DNA from: a virus
Direction: 5' to 3' (one strand)
DNA length: 33,420 nt
UHGV virus genome: UHGV-0152658
The translations under genes and the position numbers were made by a program. Below are positions 382 through 33,370 of the stretch, piece by piece (position 1 is the stretch's first letter; the number at the start of each line of letters is the position of its first letter). The notes under the pieces were generated by a model. The model ran no database searches, was not told where the DNA came from, and saw only the letters and a list, made by a program, of their open reading frames with translations.

Positions 382-708
382 TCAAATAAGTGGTTTGCTG
401 CCTAATTTCATTTTCTGGCGACCAACACAAGTCACACCCATTTCACTGCGTGGCTTGCTGTACCATGTGCGCTGATTCTTGCGCTCAATACGCTGCAGGT
501 TGCTTTCAATCTGTTCGTGGTATTCAGCCAGCACTGTAAGGTCTATAGGATTCAGTGCGCTTTCTACTCGTGATTTCGGTTTGCGATTCAGCGAGAGAAT
601 AGGGCGGTTAACTGGTTTTGCGCTTACCCCAACCAACAGGGGATTTGCTGCTTTCCATTGAGCCTGTTTCTCTGCGCGACGTTCGCGGCGGCGTGTTTGT
701 GCATCCAT
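382..708 (-). CDS. N: Antitermination protein N (lambda type)
   Basis: Translation from the ATG at 708 (MDAQTRRRERRAEKQAQWKAANPLLVGVSAKPVNRPILSLNRKPKSRVESALNPIDLTVLAEYH...) matches lambda N including the arginine-rich RNA-binding N-terminus; the 138-aa track ORF has an upstream alternative start that I reject. Confidence 0.9.
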   Translation of the reverse strand: MDAQTRRRERRAEKQAQWKAANPLLVGVSAKPVNRPILSLNRKPKSRVESALNPIDLTVLAEYHEQIESNLQRIERKNQRTWYSKPRSEMGVTCVGRQKMKLGSKPLI

Positions 709-818
709 CTGGATTCTCCTGTCAGTTAGCTTTGAGTAACGCGCCGTGATGCTTATCTCCACGGTTGCTGTCTTGCAGCTGCATTTCGCGCTACTCAAAG
801 CTTTCTGCTTTGAATGCT

Positions 819-1012: not shown

Positions 1013-2365
<1,353 letters not shown>

Positions 2366-3849: not shown

Positions 3850-5275
3850 TTTTTATGCGCCGCCCCATAGCATCGAGGCAGAGCAGGCGGTGATTGGTGG
3901 ATTGCTTCTGGATGATGACAGCAGTGAGCGCGTCCAGAAAGTTCTGGCGATGCTGAAGCCTGATTCATTTTACAGCCGACCACACAAAATCCTTTTCGAA
4001 GAAATAACCAGAATGCACCGGGAGCAAAAGCCAGTAGATGGCCTGACGCTTTTCGATGAACTGGAGCGCAAATCGTTAACGGTGTCTGTTGGCGGTTTTG
4101 CTTATATCGCTGAGATCGCAAAGAACACGCCAAGCGCCGCAAACATCGTTGCCTATGCAATGCAGGTTCGCGAAACCGCAATGGAACGCTACGCCATCAA
4201 CCGCATGACTGAAGCGACGGAATTGCTCTATTCCCGCAACGGAATGACTGCAACGCAGAAGTACGAAGCTATTCAGGCGATTTTCACGCAACTGACAGAC
4301 CATGCAAAAACCGGATCGCGTCGCGGCCTTCGCTCATTTGGTGAGGTCATGGAAGACTGGGTTAGCGACCTTGAGAAGCGATTTGACCCGTCAGGCGAAC
4401 AACGAGGAATGAGCACAGGGATCCCATCGCTGGACAGGATGCTGTCACCGAAAGGTCTGGTGAAAGGCTCTCTGTTTGTCATTGGCGCTCGCCCTAAGAT
4501 GGGGAAAACGACGCTATACAGCCAGATGGCAATCAACTGCGCAGTGCATGAGAAAAAGCCCGCTCTGATGTTCAGCCTTGAAATGCCCGGTGACCAGATA
4601 CTGGAAAAACTGGTAGGACAGAAGTCAGGTGTTAACCCGAATATTTTTTACCTTCCGGCGACAAATGACGCTGATGACGGCTATCAGGGTGATTACGATG
4701 GTGACTTCAACAGGGCGATCGAAACAGCCAATCGCTTGAGTGAAATCGACCTGCTTTACATCGACGACACGCCGGGATTATCTCTGGCTCAAATCGTCAG
4801 CGAAAGTCGTCGAATCAAGCGAGAAAAAGGATGTGTTGGCATGATTCTGGTCGATTACCTGACACTAATGACCGCTGAGAAGGCCGATCGCAACGACCTT
4901 GCTTACGGCATGATCACCAAAGGACTGAAGAACCTTGCCAAAGAGCTTGATTGTGTTGTTGTGCTTCTGACACAGCTTAACCGCGCACTGGAAAGCCGAA
5001 CCAATAAACGCCCATTACCAAGTGACTCCCGAGATACAGGGCAGATTGAACAGGATTGCGATTATTGGGTTGGGATCCATCGTGAAGGTGCTTTTGATGA
5101 CAGTGTTCCACCTGGTGAAACCGAACTAATCCTTCGTCTCAATCGTCATGGCAATACCGGCACGGTGTATTGCATTCAGGCAAATGGCGCTATTTATGAC
5201 ACAGACCAACAGTCTGCTGAAATGCGCCGCCGTGAACGCGAGGAACCGCAGTCCAAGAAGAAAGGAGGATTCTGA
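3839..5275 (+). CDS. Replicative DNA helicase, DnaB family (P22 gene 12-like)
   Basis: Walker A GARPKMGKTT, N-terminal DnaB-like domain (HSIEAEQAVIGGLLLD); ATG at 3839 overlaps the end of the O-like gene. Confidence 0.88.
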   Translation: MTDNFYAPPHSIEAEQAVIGGLLLDDDSSERVQKVLAMLKPDSFYSRPHKILFEEITRMHREQKPVDGLTLFDELERKSLTVSVGGFAYIAEIAKNTPSAANIVAYAMQVRETAMERYAINRMTEATELLYSRNGMTATQKYEAIQAIFTQLTDHAKTGSRRGLRSFGEVMEDWVSDLEKRFDPSGEQRGMSTGIPSLDRMLSPKGLVKGSLFVIGARPKMGKTTLYSQMAINCAVHEKKPALMFSLEMPGDQILEKLVGQKSGVNPNIFYLPATNDADDGYQGDYDGDFNRAIETANRLSEIDLLYIDDTPGLSLAQIVSESRRIKREKGCVGMILVDYLTLMTAEKADRNDLAYGMITKGLKNLAKELDCVVVLLTQLNRALESRTNKRPLPSDSRDTGQIEQDCDYWVGIHREGAFDDSVPPGETELILRLNRHGNTGTVYCIQANGAIYDTDQQSAEMRRREREEPQSKKKGGF

Positions 5276-5679
5276 TGACCATCTACATCACCGAGCTAAT
5301 AACAGGCCTGCTGGTAATCGCAGGTCTTTTTATTTTTGGGGGGGATGGAAGTGTGGCTGACTGGCAAATTCCAATCATCATTCTTGCCGGAGCTTCGCTG
5401 GTTGCTGGCTTTATCCTGCTGAAAAAGCATAAAGACCGTGATCAAAAAGTCGAAGTTCTCTATGGGTATCCAGCGAACAGCACAACATGGCTGACCATTT
5501 ACCACTACCGAAAATCAGGCCGCTGGGTATTCGAATGGGATGATCTGTTCGCTGAAAAGCGACCAAAGTCATGGGGAGACATCAGCGAATGCATGATGTT
5601 TGAAGAAAGAAAATCCGGCGCAACCCGAGAAGAGTTTAACGAAGCGTGGGCGCGATTAAGTGAGAGAGGGTATTTGTGA
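5275..5679 (+). CDS. Hypothetical membrane protein (134 aa, two predicted N-terminal TM helices)
   Basis: ATG 5275 after AAAGGAGGA; hydrophobic stretches ITELITGLLVIAGLFIFGG and IPIIILAGASLVAGFILL; TGATG overlap with helicase stop. Confidence 0.6.
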   Translation: MTIYITELITGLLVIAGLFIFGGDGSVADWQIPIIILAGASLVAGFILLKKHKDRDQKVEVLYGYPANSTTWLTIYHYRKSGRWVFEWDDLFAEKRPKSWGDISECMMFEERKSGATREEFNEAWARLSERGYL

Positions 5680-6162: not shown

Positions 6163-6573
6163 ATGAAGCAAACAATCTTCCTCCGAACTAAGCAACAACA
6201 GCAAGCCGCAATCAACGCCATCCTCGCAACTCCTCTCGATAAAGACAAGCCAGTCACCATCCGCATTACTGACTACAAGCGCAACCTTGACCAGAACGCA
6301 AAATTTCACGCGATGCTGGCTGATATCGCTTGTCAGGTTCAATGGTGCGGCAAATGGTTAAAACCAGAACAATGGAAGGTTTTGTTGATCAGCGGTCATG
6401 CAGTGGCAACAAAACAGGAAGCTGATGTTTTGCCCGGGCTTGAAGGCGAATACGTCAACATTCGCGAAAGTAGCGCGCAGATGAGTGTGAAGCGTATGGC
6501 AAGTCTGATTGAGTACACGACAGCATGGGCTATTGGTCAGGGTGTCAGATTTACCGACAGGAGATACGAATGA
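6163..6573 (+). CDS. ninB: NinB (Orf family recombination mediator)
   Basis: Resembles lambda NinB/Orf (conserved LDQN motif region, similar size); GGAG Shine-Dalgarno before ATG 6163. Confidence 0.8.
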
Positions 6574-6746
6574 GACGACAGCGACGAAGCATCACCGACA
6601 TAATCTGCGAAAACTGCAAATACCTTCCAACGAAACGCTCCAGAAATAAACGTAAGCCAATCCCGAAAGAATCTGACGTAAAAACCTTCAACTACACGGC
6701 TCACCTGTGGGATATCCGGTGGCTAAGACATCGTGCGAGGAAATGA
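6570..6746 (+). CDS. ninE: NinE
   Basis: ATG 6570 overlapping ninB stop (ATGA); [52 protein letters not shown] matches lambda NinE as I recall it. Confidence 0.8.
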
Positions 6747-7126
6747 CAATGGATTATTCACAGTTAAGTGATTTTGAAATTAACGTGGCGGTATTCGAAG
6801 CCATTCATAACGGATCACCGGATTACAAAGAAGGTGAGAATGGCGATATGGTGTTTGTCTCATTTGAGGGAGACATTGTAAACGGAGACGCAGTTGAAGT
6901 AGAAGTTGAGCGCGGATCCTTTAACCCATGCGCAAACCCAGCAGACTCATGGCCGATTATCACTGAAAACAACATCAGCATAATTTTAGACAATCCCTCA
7001 ATGCCGTGCGCCACAGACAACGCAAGGGACTTGTTTGATGATGCCTTACCGAATGTTGGTGTCGCATATGACAATCCACTCCGTGCCGCCATGATTGTCT
7101 TTCTCATGATGCGGAGAATCCAATAA
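6743..7126 (+). CDS. Hypothetical acidic protein (127 aa), NinX position
   Basis: ATG 6743 overlapping ninE stop (ATGA); Asp/Glu-rich; no family recognised. Confidence 0.55.
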
Positions 7127-7305
7127 TGCTTAGCCCATTCCAATCCCTTCAATACCAGAAAGAAAGCGTCGAGCGAGCTTTAACGTGCGCTAACTGCGGT
7201 CAGAAGCTGCATGTGCTGGAAGTTCACGTGTGTGAGCACTGCTGCGCAGAACTGATGAGCGATCCGAATAGCTCAATGTACGAGGAAGAAGACGATGGTG
7301 ATTAG
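7126..7305 (+). CDS. ninF: NinF
   Basis: ATG 7126 (TAATG overlap with upstream stop); [50 protein letters not shown] matches lambda NinF; 59 aa, below the track cutoff. Confidence 0.8.
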   Translation: MLSPFQSLQYQKESVERALTCANCGQKLHVLEVHVCEHCCAELMSDPNSSMYEEEDDGD

Positions 7306-7687
7306 CCGATACGGACAAATAACGTTTAAACATTTTCAAGACAATCCAACATGGGCTGCTGCGGCTGGATATGACTTTAATTATTTTGATTGTCTGTCAG
7401 TCGCATGTATAGCAACTACCAATGTTGCTAACAACATAATCGATGAATTCTTGGATTTTCCAGACTATCAGGTCAGAGAGTTGCCTGCATTTTTTGTGAA
7501 AGTATCTGTTGCTACAGCTCTGTTATTTATTTTGTTATTCGCATATCCATTGCTTGCCGTATTTGTTTATGTGAGATGCAAACACTCACAAAAGAAATAC
7601 AGCGGAGAGCATACCGATATTACCAGCCAAAATATGCGTGTGTGGTTGAGGAGATGCCAAGAGAAATGGGGGGGACGTCATGGCTAA
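7295..7687 (+). CDS. Hypothetical membrane protein (130 aa) on an AT-rich insert between ninF and the ybcO-like gene
   Basis: ORF with one clear hydrophobic helix (LLFILLFAYPLLAVFVYV); visibly lower GC than flanking nin genes. Confidence 0.5.
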   Translation: MVISRYGQITFKHFQDNPTWAAAAGYDFNYFDCLSVACIATTNVANNIIDEFLDFPDYQVRELPAFFVKVSVATALLFILLFAYPLLAVFVYVRCKHSQKKYSGEHTDITSQNMRVWLRRCQEKWGGRHG

Positions 7688-7970
7688 CCTACGCAAAGAA
7701 GCACGCGGCAGAGAATGCCAGGTTCGTATTTACGGCATATGCAATGGCAATCCTGAAACTACAGTTCTGGCACATTACCGGATGGCTGGAATTTGCGGAA
7801 CAGGAATGAAGCCTGACGACCTGATCGGGGCATGGGCTTGTAGTGACTGCCACGCGGAGATCGACCGACGCACCCATAACCTCGACAACAAAGACGCCAG
7901 ACTTTACCACCTCGAAGGCGTGATCAGGACGCAGGCGATACTGCTGAAGGAGGGAAAGATTAAGCCATGA
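7680..7970 (+). CDS. YbcO-like (DUF1364) Cys-rich protein
   Basis: 96 aa with Cys cluster; sits immediately before rusA, as ybcO does in the DLP12 prophage. Confidence 0.6.
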   Translation: MANLRKEARGRECQVRIYGICNGNPETTVLAHYRMAGICGTGMKPDDLIGAWACSDCHAEIDRRTHNLDNKDARLYHLEGVIRTQAILLKEGKIKP

Positions 7971-8329: not shown

Positions 8330-8514
8330 ACGCCACAATTCAAACGATACCAGAGCTTCTTATCCAGACACGAGGCAATCAGACCGAAGTGGCGAGGATG
8401 CTTTCCTGCGCAAGAGGAACAGTGCTCAAGTACAACCGAGACAGCAAAGGCGAGCGTCACGTAATAGTTAACGGCGTCCTGATGGTAACGCCAGGCAAAA
8501 AGGGAAGACGATGA
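8326..8514 (+). CDS. ninH: NinH
   Basis: Motif GNQTEVARxLxCxRGTV as in lambda NinH; 62 aa, directly before Q. Confidence 0.75.
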   Translation: MNATIQTIPELLIQTRGNQTEVARMLSCARGTVLKYNRDSKGERHVIVNGVLMVTPGKKGRR

Positions 8515-9134
8515 GACTCGAAAGCGTAGCTAAATTTCATTCGCCAAAAAGCCCGATGATGAGTGACTCACCACGGGCCACGGCTTCTGACTCTCTTTCC
8601 GGTACTGATGTGATGGCTGCTATGGGGATGGCGCAATCACAAGCCGGATTCGGAATGGCTGCATTCTGCGGTAAGCATGAACTCAGCCAGAACGACAAAC
8701 AAAAGGCTATCAACTATCTGATGCAATTTGCACACAAGGTATCGGGGAAATACCGTGGTGTGGCAAAGCTCGAAGGAAATACTAAGGCAAAGGTACTGCA
8801 AGTGCTCGCAACATTCGCTTATGCGGATTATTGCCGTAGTGCCGCGACGCCGGGTGCAAGATGCAGAGATTGCCACGGTACAGGTCGTGCGGTTGATATA
8901 GCCAAAACAGAGCAGTGGGGGAGAGTTGTCGAGAAAGAGTGCGGAAGATGCAAAGGCGTCGGCTATTCAAGGATGCCAGCAAGCGCCGCATATCGCGCTG
9001 TAACGATGCTAATCCCAAACCTTACCCAACCCACCTGGTCACGCACTGTTAAGCCGCTGTATGACGCTCTGGTGGTGCAATGCCACAAGGAAGAGTCAAT
9101 CGCAGACAATATTTTGAATGCGGTCACACGTTAG
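8511..9134 (+). CDS. Q: Late gene antiterminator Q (lambda type)
   Basis: Translation MRLESVAKFHSPKSPMMSDSPRATASDSLSGTDVMAAMGMAQSQAGFGMAAFCGKHELSQNDKQKAINYL... matches lambda Q over its full length as I recall it. Confidence 0.93.
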   Translation: MRLESVAKFHSPKSPMMSDSPRATASDSLSGTDVMAAMGMAQSQAGFGMAAFCGKHELSQNDKQKAINYLMQFAHKVSGKYRGVAKLEGNTKAKVLQVLATFAYADYCRSAATPGARCRDCHGTGRAVDIAKTEQWGRVVEKECGRCKGVGYSRMPASAAYRAVTMLIPNLTQPTWSRTVKPLYDALVVQCHKEESIADNILNAVTR

Positions 9135-9176
9135 CAGCATGATTGCCACGGATGGCAACATATTAACGGCATGATA

Positions 9177-9215
9177 TTGACTTATTGAATAAAATTGGGT
9201 AAATTTGACTCAACG
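9177..9215 (+). promoter_or_regulatory. Late promoter pR' (-35 TTGACT 9177-9182, -10 TAAATT 9200-9205, start near 9213) with overlapping qut
   Basis: Sequence TTGACTTATTGAATAAAATTGGGTAAATTTGACTCAACGATGG is the lambda pR' arrangement (17-bp spacer) directly downstream of Q. Confidence 0.85.
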
Positions 9216-9240
9216 ATGGATAAATGCACTCGTTAAATAA

Positions 9241-9269
9241 AGCCCTGAGTTAATAGCTCGGGGCTTTTT
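9241..9269 (+). terminator. Intrinsic terminator close to pR' (tR'-like; defines a short leader transcript)
   Basis: 9-bp stem agccctgag / ctcggggct (one G-U pair), 7-nt loop, then TTTTT. Confidence 0.7.
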
Positions 9270-9690
9270 GCGTTACAATCACAAAGGGAAGAGCGTTAGG
9301 TGAATCGGCGATACTGCCCCACAAGCCCGTTAATCGATAGAGGTAGACTAGCGCTCTTCCTTTTGTGCTGAATTAAGCGAATGCCGGAAGCAGAACCGGA
9401 TCACCAAATGCGTACAGGCGTCATCGCCGCCCAGCAACAGCACAACCCAAACTGAGCCGTAGCCACTGGCTATCCTGAACTCATCAGTGATAGTTACGCT
9501 GCGGCCTTCTATACATGACCTTCGTGAAAGCGGGTGGCAAGAGGCTGCGCTAACAACCTCCTGCCGTTTTGCCCGTGCATATCGGTCACGAACAAATCTG
9601 ATTACTAAACACAGTAGCCTGGATTTGTTCTATCAGTAATCGACCTTATTCCTAATTAAATAGAGCAAATCCCCTTATTGGGGGTAAGAC

Positions 9691-10014
9691 ATGAAGATGC
9701 CAGAAAAACATGACCTGTTAGCCGCCATTCTCGCGGCAAAGGAACAAGGCATCGGGGCAATCCTTGCGTTTGCAATGGCGTACCTTCGCGGCAGATATAA
9801 TGGCGGTGCGTTTACAAAAACAGTAATCGACGCAACGATGTGCGCCATTATCGCCTGGTTCATTCGTGACCTTCTCGACTTCGCCGGACTAAGTAGCAAT
9901 CTCGCTTATATAACGAGCGTGTTCATCGGCTACATCGGTACTGACTCGATTGGTTCGCTTATCAAACGCTTCGCTGCTAAAAAAGCCGGAGTAGAAGATG
10001 GTGGAAATCAATAA
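9691..10014 (+). CDS. S: Holin S (class I, lambda type) with dual-start motif
   Basis: [34 protein letters not shown]... matches lambda S; Met1-Lys2-Met3 dual starts and the upstream GGGGG-containing hairpin are present. Confidence 0.93.
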
Positions 10015-10474
10015 TCAACGTAAGGCGTTCCTCGATATGCTGGCGTGGTCAGAGGGAACTGATAACGGACGGCAGAAAACCAGAAATCATGGTTATGACG
10101 TCATTGTAGGCGGAGAGCTATTCACTGATTACTCCGATCACCCTCGCAAACTTGTCACGCTAAACCCAAAACTCAAATCAACAGCCGCCGGACGTTACCA
10201 GCTTCTTTCCCGTTGGTGGGATGCCTACCGTAAGCAGCTTGGCCTGAAAGACTTCTCTCCTAAAAGCCAGGATGCTGTTGCATTGCAGCAGATTAAGGAG
10301 CGTGGCGCTTTGCCGATGATTGATCGCGGTGATATCCGTCAGGCTATCGACCGTTGCAGCAATATATGGGCTTCACTGCCGGGCGCTGGTTATGGTCAGT
10401 TCGAGCATAAGGCTGACAGTCTGATTGCAAAATTCAAAGAGGCTGGCGGAACGGTCAGAGAGATTGAGGTATGA
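9998..10474 (+). CDS. R: Endolysin R (lambda-type lytic transglycosylase)
   Basis: [49 protein letters not shown]... matches lambda R; overlaps S end. Confidence 0.93.
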
Positions 10475-10929
10475 GCAGAGTCACCGCGATTATCTCCGCT
10501 CTGATTATCTGCATCGTCGTCTGCCTGTCATGGGCTGTTAATCATTACCGCGATAACGCCATTACCTACAAAGCCCAGCGCGACAAAAATGCCAGAGAAC
10601 TGAAGCTGGCGAACTCGACAATTACTGACATGCAGAAGCGTCAACGTGATGTAGCTGAACTCGATGCCAGATATACAAAGGAGCTTGCTGATGCTAACGC
10701 GACTATCGAAAGTCTTCGTGCTGATGTTTCTGCTGGGCGTAAGCGCCTGCAAGTCGCCGCCACCTGTGCAAAGTCAACGACCGGAGCCAGCAGCATGGGC
10801 GATGGAGAAAGCCCAAGACTTACAGCAGATGCTGAACTCAATTATTACCGTCTCCGAAGCGGAATCGACAGGATAACCGCGCAGGTTAACTACCTGCAGG
10901 AATACATCAGGACGCAATGCCTTCGATGA
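10471..10929 (+). CDS. Rz: Spanin inner-membrane subunit Rz
   Basis: N-terminal TM helix ([18 protein letters not shown]) followed by a coiled-coil-like region; lambda Rz-like N-terminal half; follows R. Confidence 0.88.
10691..10876 (+). CDS. Rz1: Spanin outer-membrane lipoprotein Rz1, embedded in the +1 frame of Rz
   Basis: Embedded ORF with lipoprotein-like signal ([12 protein letters not shown]) and Pro-rich mature region; start could be Met at 10691 or 10724. Confidence 0.65.
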
Positions 10930-28711: not shown

Positions 28712-30133
28712 CTACTTGAATGTAACGATATAAATCCCAGAATCTTTTTGCAGTTTGTAATTCCTGCCATCTTCAATCAATTCTACATTCTTACCATCTG
28801 ATTTAGCAATTTCTGCATTCATTCCTGAGTACCAGAAATAAGCATTCATAAACCATTTAGAAGTCAGGTTAAATTTCACAATATTTTTTAGGATTGGATA
28901 ATCAAGATAGATCTGCTTAAGATAATGAGGAAGGTTAGGCTCATTTCTTATATCAATCTTAACTAACCCAGAACGTTTATCCATGCTGTCAATAGATGCA
29001 ATAACTGATTCTAACTTCCTGATTTTATATTCAGACTCGTATTTGAAAGCATTCACATAAATAGATGCCATTGCTACCGAAATGAATAAATAAAATGCAG
29101 TTATCAAATATACAGCATATCTTACCTTAGAATCTTTTATCTTTAGCAAAGGTGTAAGTGCGACCATTAGAAATGCAGGGAAAGACATCAGCACTCTGGA
29201 TGATATTATAGCATTGCTAAACATTGCGTAGGGAATAAACAACAATAAGAATGAAATTGGCAATGAGACGGCAAATAACAATGAATCAAGGTATCTTCCA
29301 CTTGTGAAAGATTTAACTGCTTGCCACAGACACACTGCGTAAGAAATAACAACGAGCACTGAAACAACTGCTAGTTGAGTCGTCGATAACGAAGTTAACA
29401 ATGAAAATATATAGTTAATATTAGATAAGAACTCGCTAATTCCATCACGATTTAAGTGAACTATTGTCGTGTGGTTGTCAACGTATACATCTGTAGAAAG
29501 CAATGTAGTTGTAGTCTGAACAATGGCAAAGGTGACAACGAATATCACAACGCTGCTTAACACGTATCTCATATTTTCCTTTTGCGTTTTACTATTAAGC
29601 AAGTTGTTTAAAGACTGAAGAATGACAAGGCAGACAAATACAGCAAACGAAGTTTGATAGAAAAAGCTTGCTGCAGTGAGAAGCAGCAGTCTGAAAATAA
29701 AATTGAATTTATGTTCATACCTAACGGCCGCCAGCATAGCCAAAGAAAACGATGCCGACATTCCAATAACATCAATGTGGTATGACATGTTTTCAATATA
29801 AAATGGAGAACAAATTAAAACACATATCGTGATTGTTTTTGCAATCCATTGCTTGCCAAACACAGATTCAGCAAAGTAATTGCAGGCTACTATCATGATA
29901 ACAAATGAAACAACAAGGTTCAGTTGATAAACATCTGGCGAGATCAACTTTCCTGATGAATTCAAAAGGATGTAATACAACTCGGTAAGAAATCGACCTT
30001 GAGAAGCTAGCCCGATATATCCGTATGAATATCTTGCTACATCATCCACAAAAGGAGGCATATAAAAGAATGGAAGGAAGAAGCAAGCGACTATAAGTAT
30101 CGCTGGCATTTCATATCGCGTTAATTTAAACAT
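28712..30133 (-). CDS. Serotype-specific O-antigen glucosyltransferase (GtrC-type polytopic membrane protein)
   Basis: 473-aa protein with many hydrophobic helices, AT-rich, last gene of a gtrA-gtrB operon; specificity cannot be read from sequence. Confidence 0.75.
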
Positions 30134-31049
30134 CTTTAGACCCCTTAATTATATATCTTGGTCTTGATTTTACTTCGACATATATTCTGCCAATGTATTC
30201 CCCAAGCACACCAATACCTATCAACTGAATTCCCCCCAGGAAAAGAATTGAAACCAATAGCGATGGATAACCACGGACAGCATTACCGAACACCAATGTG
30301 TCGAAAATCATCCACACCCCGTAAAGGAACGAGAGTCCCGCAACAAGTAGACCGATGTAAGTCCACACGCGCAAGGGGAAGGTCGAGAAACTTGTAATCC
30401 CCTCAAGCGCCAGGTTCCAGAGCTTCCAGCCATTGAACTTTGTGCTTCCGGCAACGCGTTCAGCACGGATGTATTCAACAACATCCGTCTTACCGCCAAC
30501 CCAAGATAAAACGCCTTTCATAAACAGGTTACGCTCTGGCAGTAGTTTGATATTTTCTACCATCTCTCGTGACATAAGACGGAAGTCACCAACGTTCTCT
30601 TCAATCTGCGGATTACTAATTTTGTTGTGAAGTTTATAAAACCACTCAGCAGTTTTACGCTTTAACCTACCATCAGTTGATCTGTCAGAGCGCTTTGCCA
30701 GCACCATATCAGCACCTGCCTGCCACTTTTCAATAAGATGAGGAATGACCTCAATCGGGTCTTGCAGGTCAACATCAATTGGAATCACGGCATCGCCAGT
30801 TGCATGGTCTAACCCTGCAAACAATGCTGGTTCTTTACCAAAGTTGCGTGTAAATGACAGCGGAACAACTAGCGGATCAGAAACAGCCAGAGCATTAATA
30901 ATTGACTCCGTAGCGTCTTTGCTTCCGTCATTTATGAAAACAATTTCCACTTCATATGGCTTCAACTCTTCGAATTCACGTACCGTTTTATAAAAAATTG
31001 GTATCGCTTCTTCTTCATTGAAGACAGGAACTACAAGAGATATCTTCAT
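30126..31049 (-). CDS. gtrB: Bactoprenol glucosyltransferase GtrB (GT2 family)
   Basis: N-terminal GT2 signature ([11 protein letters not shown]...FINDGSKD...DVDLQDP) and C-terminal TM helices; 307 aa. Confidence 0.9.
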
Positions 31050-31408
31050 TTCGCATCCCTAAAGACAATGAACTTTGAATAGACGAAACCGCACACCAGG
31101 CTGATGGCGGAAAAGGTGACGAGAGTGATAATTGGAGGAAGTGAACATCTATCAGCAGCCCATCCAACAGTTGCACTCAGTGTTCCCATGAACCCGACAA
31201 ATAACATGTAGCGCATCGTTGTAGTCGATGCTTTGAATGTGAATTTTGCATTCGCGAAGAAGCTAAAACTCACAGCCACAACGAAACCTGCGAAGTTTGC
31301 CAGAGCCTGATTGGTATGCGCGGCATAGATACATACACCAAAAACCACCCAGTGTATAAGTGTGTTCAGCACACCAATCGAGGTGTACTTTGCAAATAGC
31401 TTTAACAT
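31046..31408 (-). CDS. gtrA: GtrA flippase-like small membrane protein
   Basis: 120 aa, four predicted TM helices, GtrA-like; ATGA overlap with gtrB. Confidence 0.88.
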
Positions 31409-31995: not shown

Positions 31996-32203
31996 TAGGT
32001 TAAATCCGTTATTTCTGCTGTCTGCCAGAGTATCAAATATCACCGTGCTAATCAGCTTTAGCGCGACAATTTGGCAGCGAGTGGCAACAGTTCATGTCAG
32101 ATAAAAATGAGATAGTAGTCACATTTTCTTGCACTTTATTCCAGCCAGTTCATAAGTATTTCCGTAAAAAGAACAGCTATTTGAAACACCTGAGGGTTTG
32201 CTG

Positions 32204-33370
32204 TTGAAACGCCGTCTTATTATTGCTGCTTCTTTGTTCGTTTTTAATTTATCGTCTGGTTTTGCGGCGGAAAACATTCCTTTTTCACCTCAACCTCCAG
32301 AGATTCATGCCGGGTCCTGGGTATTGATGGATTACACCACCGGTCAGATTCTCACCGCGGGTAATGAGCATCAACAGCGCAATCCCGCCAGCCTGACAAA
32401 GCTGATGACGGGCTATGTCGTGGATCGCGCTATCGATAGTCATCGCATTAAGCCAGACGATATTGTCACCGTGGGGCGTGATGCGTGGGCGAAAGATAAT
32501 CCGGTGTTTGTCGGTTCTTCACTGATGTTTTTGAAAGAGGGCGATCGCGTATCGGTACGTGATTTAAGCCGTGGTTTAATTGTGGATTCCGGAAATGACG
32601 CTTGTGTTGCTCTGGCTGACTATATTGCCGGTGGGCAACGGCAGTTTGTTGAAATGATGAACAACTATGCCGAGAAGCTGCATCTCAAGGATACGCATTT
32701 TGAAACAGTGCATGGTCTGGATGCACCTGGCCAGCATAGCTCGGCTTATGATTTAGCCGTGCTTTCTCGCGCTATCATCCACGGCGAGCCCGAGTTTTAT
32801 CATATGTACAGTGAGAAAAGCCTCACCTGGAACGGTATCACCCAGCAAAACCGTAACGGGTTATTGTGGGATAAAACCATGAATGTTGACGGCCTGAAAA
32901 CGGGCCATACTTCTGGTGCCGGGTTTAATCTTATTGCTTCGGCTGTAGACGGGCAGCGTCGCCTCATTGCAGTGGTAATGGGGGCTGACAGTGCAAAAGG
33001 TCGTGAGGAAGAGGCAAGAAAATTACTGCGTTGGGGGCAACAAAACTTTACTACGGTGCAAATTTTGCACCGTGGGAAAAAGGTCGGTACGGAACGCATC
33101 TGGTATGGCGATAAAGAAAATATCGCCCTGGGAACGGAACAAGAGTTCTGGATGGTGCTACCGAAAGCCGAAATTCCACATATCAAAGCCAAATATACCC
33201 TTGATGGTAAAGAACTCACCGCGCCAATTAGCGCCCATCAGCGGGTAGGGGAAATTGAACTTTACGACCGTGATAAACAGGTGGCGCACTGGCCGCTGGT
33301 TACCCTGGAATCTGTCGGGGAAGGCAGCATGTTTTCCCGCCTGAGTGATTATTTCCACCATAAGGCCTGA
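32204..33370 (+). CDS. dacD: D-alanyl-D-alanine carboxypeptidase DacD (PBP6b), host gene
   Basis: Signal peptide, SxxK active-site motif (ASLTKLMT), SGN and KTG motifs; start set at TTG 32204 to give 388 aa (track ORF begins at TTG 32198). Confidence 0.88.
   Translation: MKRRLIIAASLFVFNLSSGFAAENIPFSPQPPEIHAGSWVLMDYTTGQILTAGNEHQQRNPASLTKLMTGYVVDRAIDSHRIKPDDIVTVGRDAWAKDNPVFVGSSLMFLKEGDRVSVRDLSRGLIVDSGNDACVALADYIAGGQRQFVEMMNNYAEKLHLKDTHFETVHGLDAPGQHSSAYDLAVLSRAIIHGEPEFYHMYSEKSLTWNGITQQNRNGLLWDKTMNVDGLKTGHTSGAGFNLIASAVDGQRRLIAVVMGADSAKGREEEARKLLRWGQQNFTTVQILHRGKKVGTERIWYGDKENIALGTEQEFWMVLPKAEIPHIKAKYTLDGKELTAPISAHQRVGEIELYDRDKQVAHWPLVTLESVGEGSMFSRLSDYFHHKA

Follow-up and report, generated by a model that had tools for sequence, protein, structure and literature searches.

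The nin regions of lambdoid phages, exemplified by ninA-I of lambda and ninA, B, D, E, X, F, G, Y, H and Z of P22, hold small co-oriented genes that overlap one another between the replication genes and Q, that are dispensable and that are exchanged at gene boundaries (PMC8022706, PMC5630979, PMC10695390). These genes are delayed-early and N-dependent, are carried on the PR transcript and are non-essential (PMC10695390), and tight ATGA-type packing is typical of the region (PMC8022706). The pool of nin-region genes is put at 30-50, with each phage holding about 10, in the passage of PMC5630979 that cites Juhala 2000. The characterised nin products are soluble proteins of DNA metabolism or regulation.

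A second group of described systems consists of small inner-membrane proteins for superinfection exclusion, among them T4 Imm, P22 SieA and HK97 gp15. The imm gene of T4 is expressed early in lytic growth, SieA and gp15 are made from the prophage, and the lambdoid exclusion genes sieA, sieB, rex and cor are all expressed from the prophage and not from the nin region.

Here, a stretch of 33,420 nucleotides (UHGV virus genome UHGV-0152658, hereafter the window), which represents most of a P22-like (Lederbergvirus) prophage of E. coli, was analysed with regard to the ORF at 7295..7687 on the + strand. The ORF has in common with the nin pool its strand, its place between the replication genes and Q, its small size, its overlaps with the neighbours, its predicted dispensability and its exchange at gene boundaries. 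It differs in that its product is a predicted membrane protein, and in that its family, phrog_2638, is not confined to nin regions but has members in P1-like, Mu-like and Proteus phages as well. The product resembles T4 Imm, P22 SieA and HK97 gp15 in being phage-encoded, small, accessory, patchily distributed and predicted to reside in the inner membrane, a likeness by description and not residue by residue. No sequence or fold relationship to these proteins was detectable (PHROGs, Pfam and PADLOC; the fold searches were uninformative). The expression proposed below would be similar in timing to that of T4 imm, whereas SieA and gp15 are prophage-expressed and the ORF lies in a lytic operon.

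The ORF in its nin-region setting

The nearest sequenced phages, IME10, HZ41 and APC_JM3.2, were 95.7-96.3% identical to the window across 57-66% of its first 25 kb, and none of them carried the ORF. Pfam matches to the neighbours gave the order NinB (6163-6573), NinE, NinX (6707-7126), NinF (7126..7305, 59 aa, E 1.8e-12), the ORF, the YbcO/DUF1364 nuclease-like gene (7680..7970, E 2.3e-43), RusA, NinH and Q (8511-9134), all on the + strand. The neighbours named in an initial annotation made from the sequence alone were all recovered, and NinX had been missing from its list. The start of the ORF, which the same annotation had placed over the stop region of ninF, is an ATG inside the last ninF codons with an overlap of 11 nt, and its stop overlaps the ATG of ybcO by 8 nt. 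By sequence reading, a Shine-Dalgarno-like GAGGA (7282-7286) is found 9 nt 5′ of the ORF ATG at 7295-7297 (the whole element being 7282..7297), and a run of seven G (7668-7674) in the 3′ end of the ORF precedes the ybcO ATG at 7680 in the same manner (7668..7682). In its position between replication genes and Q, its co-orientation and its stop/start overlaps the ORF agrees with what is found for nin-region genes. Close relatives exist without the gene, which is probably dispensable for phage growth.

The mechanical starts of the ORFs for ninE (6525..6746) and ninX (6707..7126) are probably too far upstream. In both, the Pfam domain (NinE and NinX, respectively) begins at residue 16, and in RefSeq relatives NinE is annotated with 58 aa and NinX with 119-127 aa; with such starts the usual short overlaps are restored. 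Another small predicted membrane protein is encoded in the early-right operon at 5275..5679 (+). It has 134 aa with two N-terminal hydrophobic segments, matches phrog_5903/5907, and its start overlaps the stop of the DnaB-like helicase gene. No tRNA genes were found between Q and the holin gene (9135..9690), and an ARAGORN scan of the whole window was likewise negative; at this Q-holin position the related ws5-3 prophage has tRNA-Asn and tRNA-Thr (locus L001, 8892-9047). The ORF at 32198..33370 (+) encodes the host PBP5-type D-Ala-D-Ala carboxypeptidase, and the prophage boundary therefore falls between approximately 31.4 and 32.2 kb.

The phrog_2638 family and its conservation

The 130 aa product of the ORF matched the HMM of phrog_2638 with E 5.5e-55, residues 9-126 aligning with profile positions 2-119 of 120. 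This is the ORF's own family, matched at full length by the ORF and by all 39 of the 39 aligned relatives, and PHROGs holds it without annotation. A word-indexed search had returned 13 relatives of the protein, and an HMM search run exhaustively against 1.84 billion representatives gave no more than 43 clusters, all of 100-135 aa and with the same layout. The family is thus an already catalogued but uncharacterised one, and the exact protein has been deposited many times as 'hypothetical protein'. A literature search on accession numbers, the PHROG identifier and the slot found no study of the gene.

By our own estimate a chance ORF of this length is expected about once per window in DNA of 40% GC, and the case for a gene was therefore built on homology and purifying selection and not on length. 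Against homologues of 50-57% identity, pN/pS was 0.31-0.39 (pN 0.28-0.32; pS 0.78-0.91, saturated), and close alleles gave dN/dS of 0.08-0.52. The constraint is unevenly distributed: codons 1-35 (7295..7399) form the most constrained module, with pN 0.07-0.10 versus 0.30-0.48 elsewhere in the ORF and pS saturated throughout. As judged from these comparisons of sequence, the ORF is a genuine gene under purifying selection. An overlapping ORF at 7576..7809 (+, 77 aa) was ruled out by the main-frame synonymous sites, which are saturated there as well (pS 0.72-0.93), so that no second constraint acts on the stretch; synonymous sites free of constraint likewise argue against an overlapping element within the ORF.

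Relatives of phrog_2638, searched for with a 10-sequence alignment, were detected only in Enterobacterales and always in phage contexts. The host genera were Escherichia, Salmonella, Klebsiella, Buttiauxella, Dryocola, Pseudocitrobacter, Yersinia, Xenorhabdus, Morganella, Proteus and Providencia. In lambdoid prophages the relatives follow NinF, NinE, NinX or NinB. In P1-like phage-plasmids the relative is found in the pap-hot variable region, in Yersinia phage P840 in the early recombination module together with recombinase and exonuclease genes, and in Proteus Gorganvirus phages in the replication module with helicase, exonuclease and primase genes. Three Providencia Mu-like prophages (loci L107-L109, 7001-7375) carry it between Mu F and a Mu G-like gene of the late head operon, with overlapping start and stop. 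Small membrane-protein genes are not usual in a late head-morphogenesis operon, and this location shows the family to be independent of nin regions.

No conserved partner or neighbour gene was found across the 93 loci, and Pfam searches of the neighbour clusters returned only Ead/Ea22, HNH and Rha/KilAC. Two database labels of relatives were annotation errors, namely 'conotoxin' in Yersinia phage P840 and 'ribonucleotide reductase large subunit' in Proteus phages; both belong to family members of 117-120 aa, that is, to the phrog_2638 membrane-protein family. All other database names of relatives were 'hypothetical protein'.

Interchangeable cassettes after ninF

The ORF was present in 41 of 5426 complete E. 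coli genomes, whereas the flanking nin sequences were present in 2245-2278 (about 2250). Carriers include ST131 strains and the EPEC strain E2348/69. Among 50,697 phage records, the only DNA-level match to the ORF was in Klebsiella phage phiKp_30.

The slot after ninF is occupied by at least four alternative cassettes. A Rha/KilAC antirepressor gene (723 nt, 240 aa) was by far the commonest occupant in the spread sample, and the others were a phrog_1258 ORF of 89 aa, a phrog_3973 ORF of 70 aa, HNH genes and the ORF itself. In the sampled E. coli prophages having ninF followed by DUF1364, every slot was filled and no empty ninF-DUF1364 junction was seen. Where ninG follows, an empty slot is also seen: ninF directly adjoins ninG in lambda, P22 and the close relative APC_JM3.2. 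In strain AZ146 the same ORF is joined to NinG instead of DUF1364.

The junctions were aligned for five prophage loci carrying four different downstream cassettes. On the left side, identity among the five loci was complete through GAGGAAGAAGACGATG and collapsed right after the cassette ATG in the end of ninF. On the right side, identity resumed exactly at ATGGCTAA, the first 8 nt of the next gene, and each alternative cassette ended in its own GGAG/GAGG-like run ahead of the shared ATGGCTAA. The Rha/KilAC, phrog_1258 and phrog_3973 cassettes have left and right junctions identical to those of the ORF and the same translational coupling, but are unrelated to it in sequence and, unlike its product, are predicted to encode soluble proteins. 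A polymorphic patch approximately 60 nt inside ninF has alleles that assort independently of the cassette.

The ORF had been described as an insertion interrupting a conserved gene order. This was not what the alignment displayed: the ORF is present or absent by cassette, with the breaks at GAGGAAGAAGACGATG and ATGGCTAA, and the sampled slots hold alternative cassettes. The related proposal of horizontal acquisition fared better, in that the gene is accessory and exchanged (41 of 5426 genomes against about 2250 with the flanks), is absent from the nearest phages and falls below its flanks in GC at 97% of 92 loci. The exchange at the slot is ordinary lambdoid nin-region mosaicism and no new kind of element. 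The ORF most probably arrived by recombination at gene boundaries, where the last codons of ninF supply a shared ribosome-binding site and ATG to whichever cassette follows and ATGGCTAA is the other junction.

Two further arrangements were seen at this position. In phiKp_30 (locus L097, 4658-5988), the ORF homologue (96% aa identity) and a 711-nt 'DNA-binding protein' gene are stacked before DUF1364; that record has no annotation of ninE, ninX or ninF in the interval from NinB to the ORF homologue. In E. coli E2348/69 (locus L002, NC_011601.1 735687-736399), two copies of ninF split by an HNH-endonuclease pseudogene are located directly upstream of the ORF homologue, and the duplicated ninF with the pseudogene is a recombination scar at the slot.

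Base composition and expression

The visibly higher AT content that had been reported for the ORF was borne out by windowed GC as well as by GC and GC3 per gene. The ORF has a GC of 0.399 (39.9%) and a GC3 of 0.366 (36.6%), against 0.455-0.529 and 0.471-0.567, respectively, in eight neighbour genes, and 200-nt windows across 7300-7599 fall to GC 0.36-0.385. The dip is real but moderate, being at the 6.9th percentile among 393-nt windows of the whole window. Deeper troughs exist at 720-1335 and at 26.6-30.4 kb, and the gtr/tailspike end is much more AT-rich. At that end of the prophage, a gtrA/gtrB/gtrC-like cluster for O-antigen glucosylation (28712..31408, -; Pfam GtrA, GT2 and GtrII) contains the lowest GC of the window, 0.31 near 28750. 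Across the 92 loci with a relative, the family gene was lower in GC than its 2-kb flanks in 97%, with a mean difference of 5.7 points, and AT-richness is therefore a property of the family and not only a sign of recent arrival.

Promoter- and terminator-like sites in 5.2-9.8 kb did not exceed their frequency in shuffled sequence, and the ORF is bracketed by none of them. On the + strand, neither a promoter-like site upstream within ninF nor a terminator-like site downstream of the ORF was found in a consensus scan, which a weak internal or upstream promoter could escape. Two candidates, an antisense promoter-like site at 7660-7631 and a minus-strand terminator-like site at 7720-7706, were not above the shuffled expectation and were rejected. 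As the ORF has no promoter or terminator of its own, it most likely shares the delayed-early PR transcript, and its translation would be coupled to that of ninF. The product would then be a protein of lytic growth and not of the lysogen. A lysogen of Kapi1, a P22-like phage of E. coli, showed no detectable expression of ninE, ninF or ninH (PMC12922286).

The strongest of the competing explanations is that of a classical lysogenic-conversion moron, in which a foreign, AT-rich cargo gene would be active in the repressed prophage and confer a trait on the host, for instance superinfection exclusion or defence in the lysogen. The deviant base composition expected of a moron is seen in the ORF (GC 0.399 versus 0.455-0.529), and GC is below the flanks both in the window and in 97% of the loci. 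The gene is moreover rare and patchy, it encodes a small membrane protein as do many prophage exclusion factors, and AT-rich DNA often contains fortuitous promoters. The promoter and terminator that a moron would have of its own are lacking above chance, and for this reason the ORF is not a classical moron in the Hendrix/Juhala sense. Also contrary to this explanation, the start and stop of the ORF overlap both neighbours, the adjacent nin genes are silent in the related lysogen (PMC12922286), the relatives in the Gorganvirus replication module and in the Mu-like late head operon do not suggest lysogen expression, and a PADLOC match is absent. We consider a moron of this kind unlikely. The initial annotation, in suggesting a cargo gene, over-read a gene that is start/stop-coupled, has no promoter or terminator above chance and is adjacent to genes (ninE, ninF and ninH) silent in the Kapi1 lysogen (PMC12922286).

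Elsewhere in the prophage, a 158-aa ORF at 1013..1489 (-) lies in the low-GC patch at 720-1335, with the N gene (382..798, Pfam N36) on one side and the cI-like repressor ORF (1414..2046) on the other. It matches phrog_2651 and gave no Pfam or PADLOC match. Its position is that of rexAB in lambda, on which ground it is likely lysogen-expressed, and this makes it a better candidate than the ORF at 7295..7687 for a prophage-expressed accessory or defence gene.

Architecture and topology of the protein

The protein has a hydrophobic helix, as claimed from the initial reading, at residues ~64-94, where 19-residue Kyte-Doolittle means reach 2.6; it is the sole strong hydrophobic stretch. The AlphaFold2 model, made from a 10-sequence alignment, had a pLDDT of 85 and a pTM of 0.71 and consists of a short beta-hairpin (2-9), two short helices (11-23), a helix at 30-53, a long helix at 60-101 and a helix at 108-126. 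Hydropathy, alignment and the long helix of the model agree on a transmembrane (TM) helix at codons 64-94 (7484..7576), and the ORF thus encodes a predicted small single-pass membrane protein. The basic tail that follows (codons 95-130, 7577..7684) has 8 K/R and a net charge of +5, includes the amphipathic helix 108-126 and is predicted to be cytoplasmic.

Close relatives share ITFKHFQDNPxWAAAAGYDFNYFDCLS in codons 1-35, and in the alignment the family-wide core of this module is F14, P18, A21, G25, Y26 and usually D32-C33. An acidic D/E-x-E-V-R-E-L-P stretch stands just before the TM helix, and the helix itself contains a conserved Pro86 and an aromatic motif, which is YPLL in the ORF and PFxFW in distant members.

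K/R are more numerous in the 15 positions that follow the TM helix than in the 15 that precede it in 34 of 39 family members (means 4.46 versus 1.97). Together with the positive-inside rule, this bias favours an N-out/C-in orientation, in which the acidic N-terminal domain of about 60 residues is probably periplasmic and the basic tail cytoplasmic. Translocation of a 63-residue N-terminal domain that lacks a signal peptide can take place, though it is not common. Most members have an amphipathic helix 30-53 (mean Kyte-Doolittle 0.65), with several charged residues in many, but this helix is TM-like in a few distant ones and the most hydrophobic segment in P0041. This would allow an N-in/C-in hairpin as the alternative, with the conserved N-terminal module in the cytoplasm.

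Homology searches had phrog_2638 as their sole informative outcome. No match to the protein was obtained in PADLOC with E up to 10, and Pfam and NCBIfam to the same limit gave only noise, e.g. Kinocilin and ATP synthase c, which is attributed to TM composition; a Pfam scan of all 39 relatives gave scattered TM noise only. In PHROGs the unannotated phrog_2638 was the only match, and no defence, Abi, Sie, toxin or holin family was found in PHROGs, Pfam or PADLOC. A profile search of PDB sequences returned nothing, and Foldseek against PDB and BFVD nothing below E 1e-3, the one BFVD match at E 3e-3 being an unnamed 109-aa viral protein. In fold comparison the AlphaFold2 model resembles only generic helical hairpins.

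Possible roles during phage growth

Taken together, the observations are on balance best explained by a functional nin-pool cassette of phrog_2638 that is expressed from the PR operon in lytic growth and encodes a single-pass inner-membrane protein with an envelope-acting role, a joint reading that we hold to be somewhat probable. A solo gene that has no signals of its own and turns up in unrelated phages, in operons that are early, late or variable, points to a benefit during lytic growth that is independent of recombination genes. The constraint is highest in the 35-residue N-terminal module and in the TM motif, which suggests specific binding and disfavours a mere anchor or pore. The N-terminal 35 residues and the Pro/aromatic TM motif would then be the probable working parts, binding a conserved component of the envelope or inner membrane of Enterobacterales. 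The most plausible role, drawn from architecture, location and priors, would be the exclusion or handicapping of competing phages (e.g. at DNA entry), or the modification of the host envelope or neutralisation of a membrane function, in lytic development; an envelope-acting role in competition or host takeover is proposed with low confidence in its specifics. Counting against exclusion from a nin region is the prophage expression of sieA, sieB, rex and cor.

A bolder version is that phrog_2638 represents an unrecognised class of lytic-cycle envelope effectors, promoter-less and solo, which hop among the operons of lambdoid, P22-like, P1-like, Mu-like and Gorganvirus phages and whose 35-residue module binds a conserved host inner-membrane or periplasmic protein, thereby blocking genome entry by competitors or disabling a membrane-based host defence. 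This version is tentative and must be regarded as doubtful.

Small size, a basic tail and a single helix of strong hydrophobicity next to an amphipathic one with a polar face would also be compatible with a membrane toxin, an abortive-infection effector or a holin- or antiholin-like modulator of lysis that depolarises or permeabilises the inner membrane, and the helical-hairpin-like model could oligomerise. However, no antitoxin or other partner gene is conserved next to the gene; the toxin-antitoxin test found no conserved neighbour across 93 loci, and Rfam nothing in the window. A complete lysis cassette is located elsewhere, at 9691-10929 downstream of Q, and holin types differ among the carriers. 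No holin, Abi or toxin model was matched in Pfam, PHROGs or PADLOC, and conservation is highest in the non-membrane N-terminal module and not in the TM helix. Such a function appears quite unlikely.

The N-in/C-in hairpin would make the protein a cytoplasm-facing membrane anchor that tethers replication or recombination proteins of the phage, or its DNA. The ORF is found among NinB, RusA and YbcO, and relatives among the helicase, exonuclease and primase genes of Proteus phages and the recombinase and exonuclease genes of P840; the C-terminal helix is basic, and helix 30-53 is in some members hydrophobic enough to span the membrane. The link to DNA metabolism is nevertheless broken by the Mu-like late head operon and the P1-like variable region, the basic tail is short and is variable in distant members, and helix 30-53 has several charged residues in many family members; such an anchor is very unlikely. 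Finally, that the ORF is non-functional, a chance ORF or decaying remnant in an AT-rich spacer, might be argued from a length that by our estimate is not significant by itself in DNA of 40% GC and from a product without an assigned function, but this is already refuted, as far as sequence can tell, by the 43 representative clusters of the same length and architecture and by strong purifying selection with saturated synonymous sites, and it is further contradicted by the correctly spaced Shine-Dalgarno sequence and the confident AlphaFold2 model.

Preferring, then, a cassette of the lytic PR operon that encodes an envelope-acting membrane protein, we note that the ORF by itself matters little: it adds a single gene to the well-known accessory pool of nin regions. 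The end of ninF as a docking site is a clean natural example of gene-boundary recombination, and the slot is a convenient place for engineering payloads into P22-like or lambdoid phages. The family as a whole is a small one of Enterobacterales phages, constrained over 35 residues and distributed among early, late and variable operons, and this pattern suits a factor for phage competition or host takeover.
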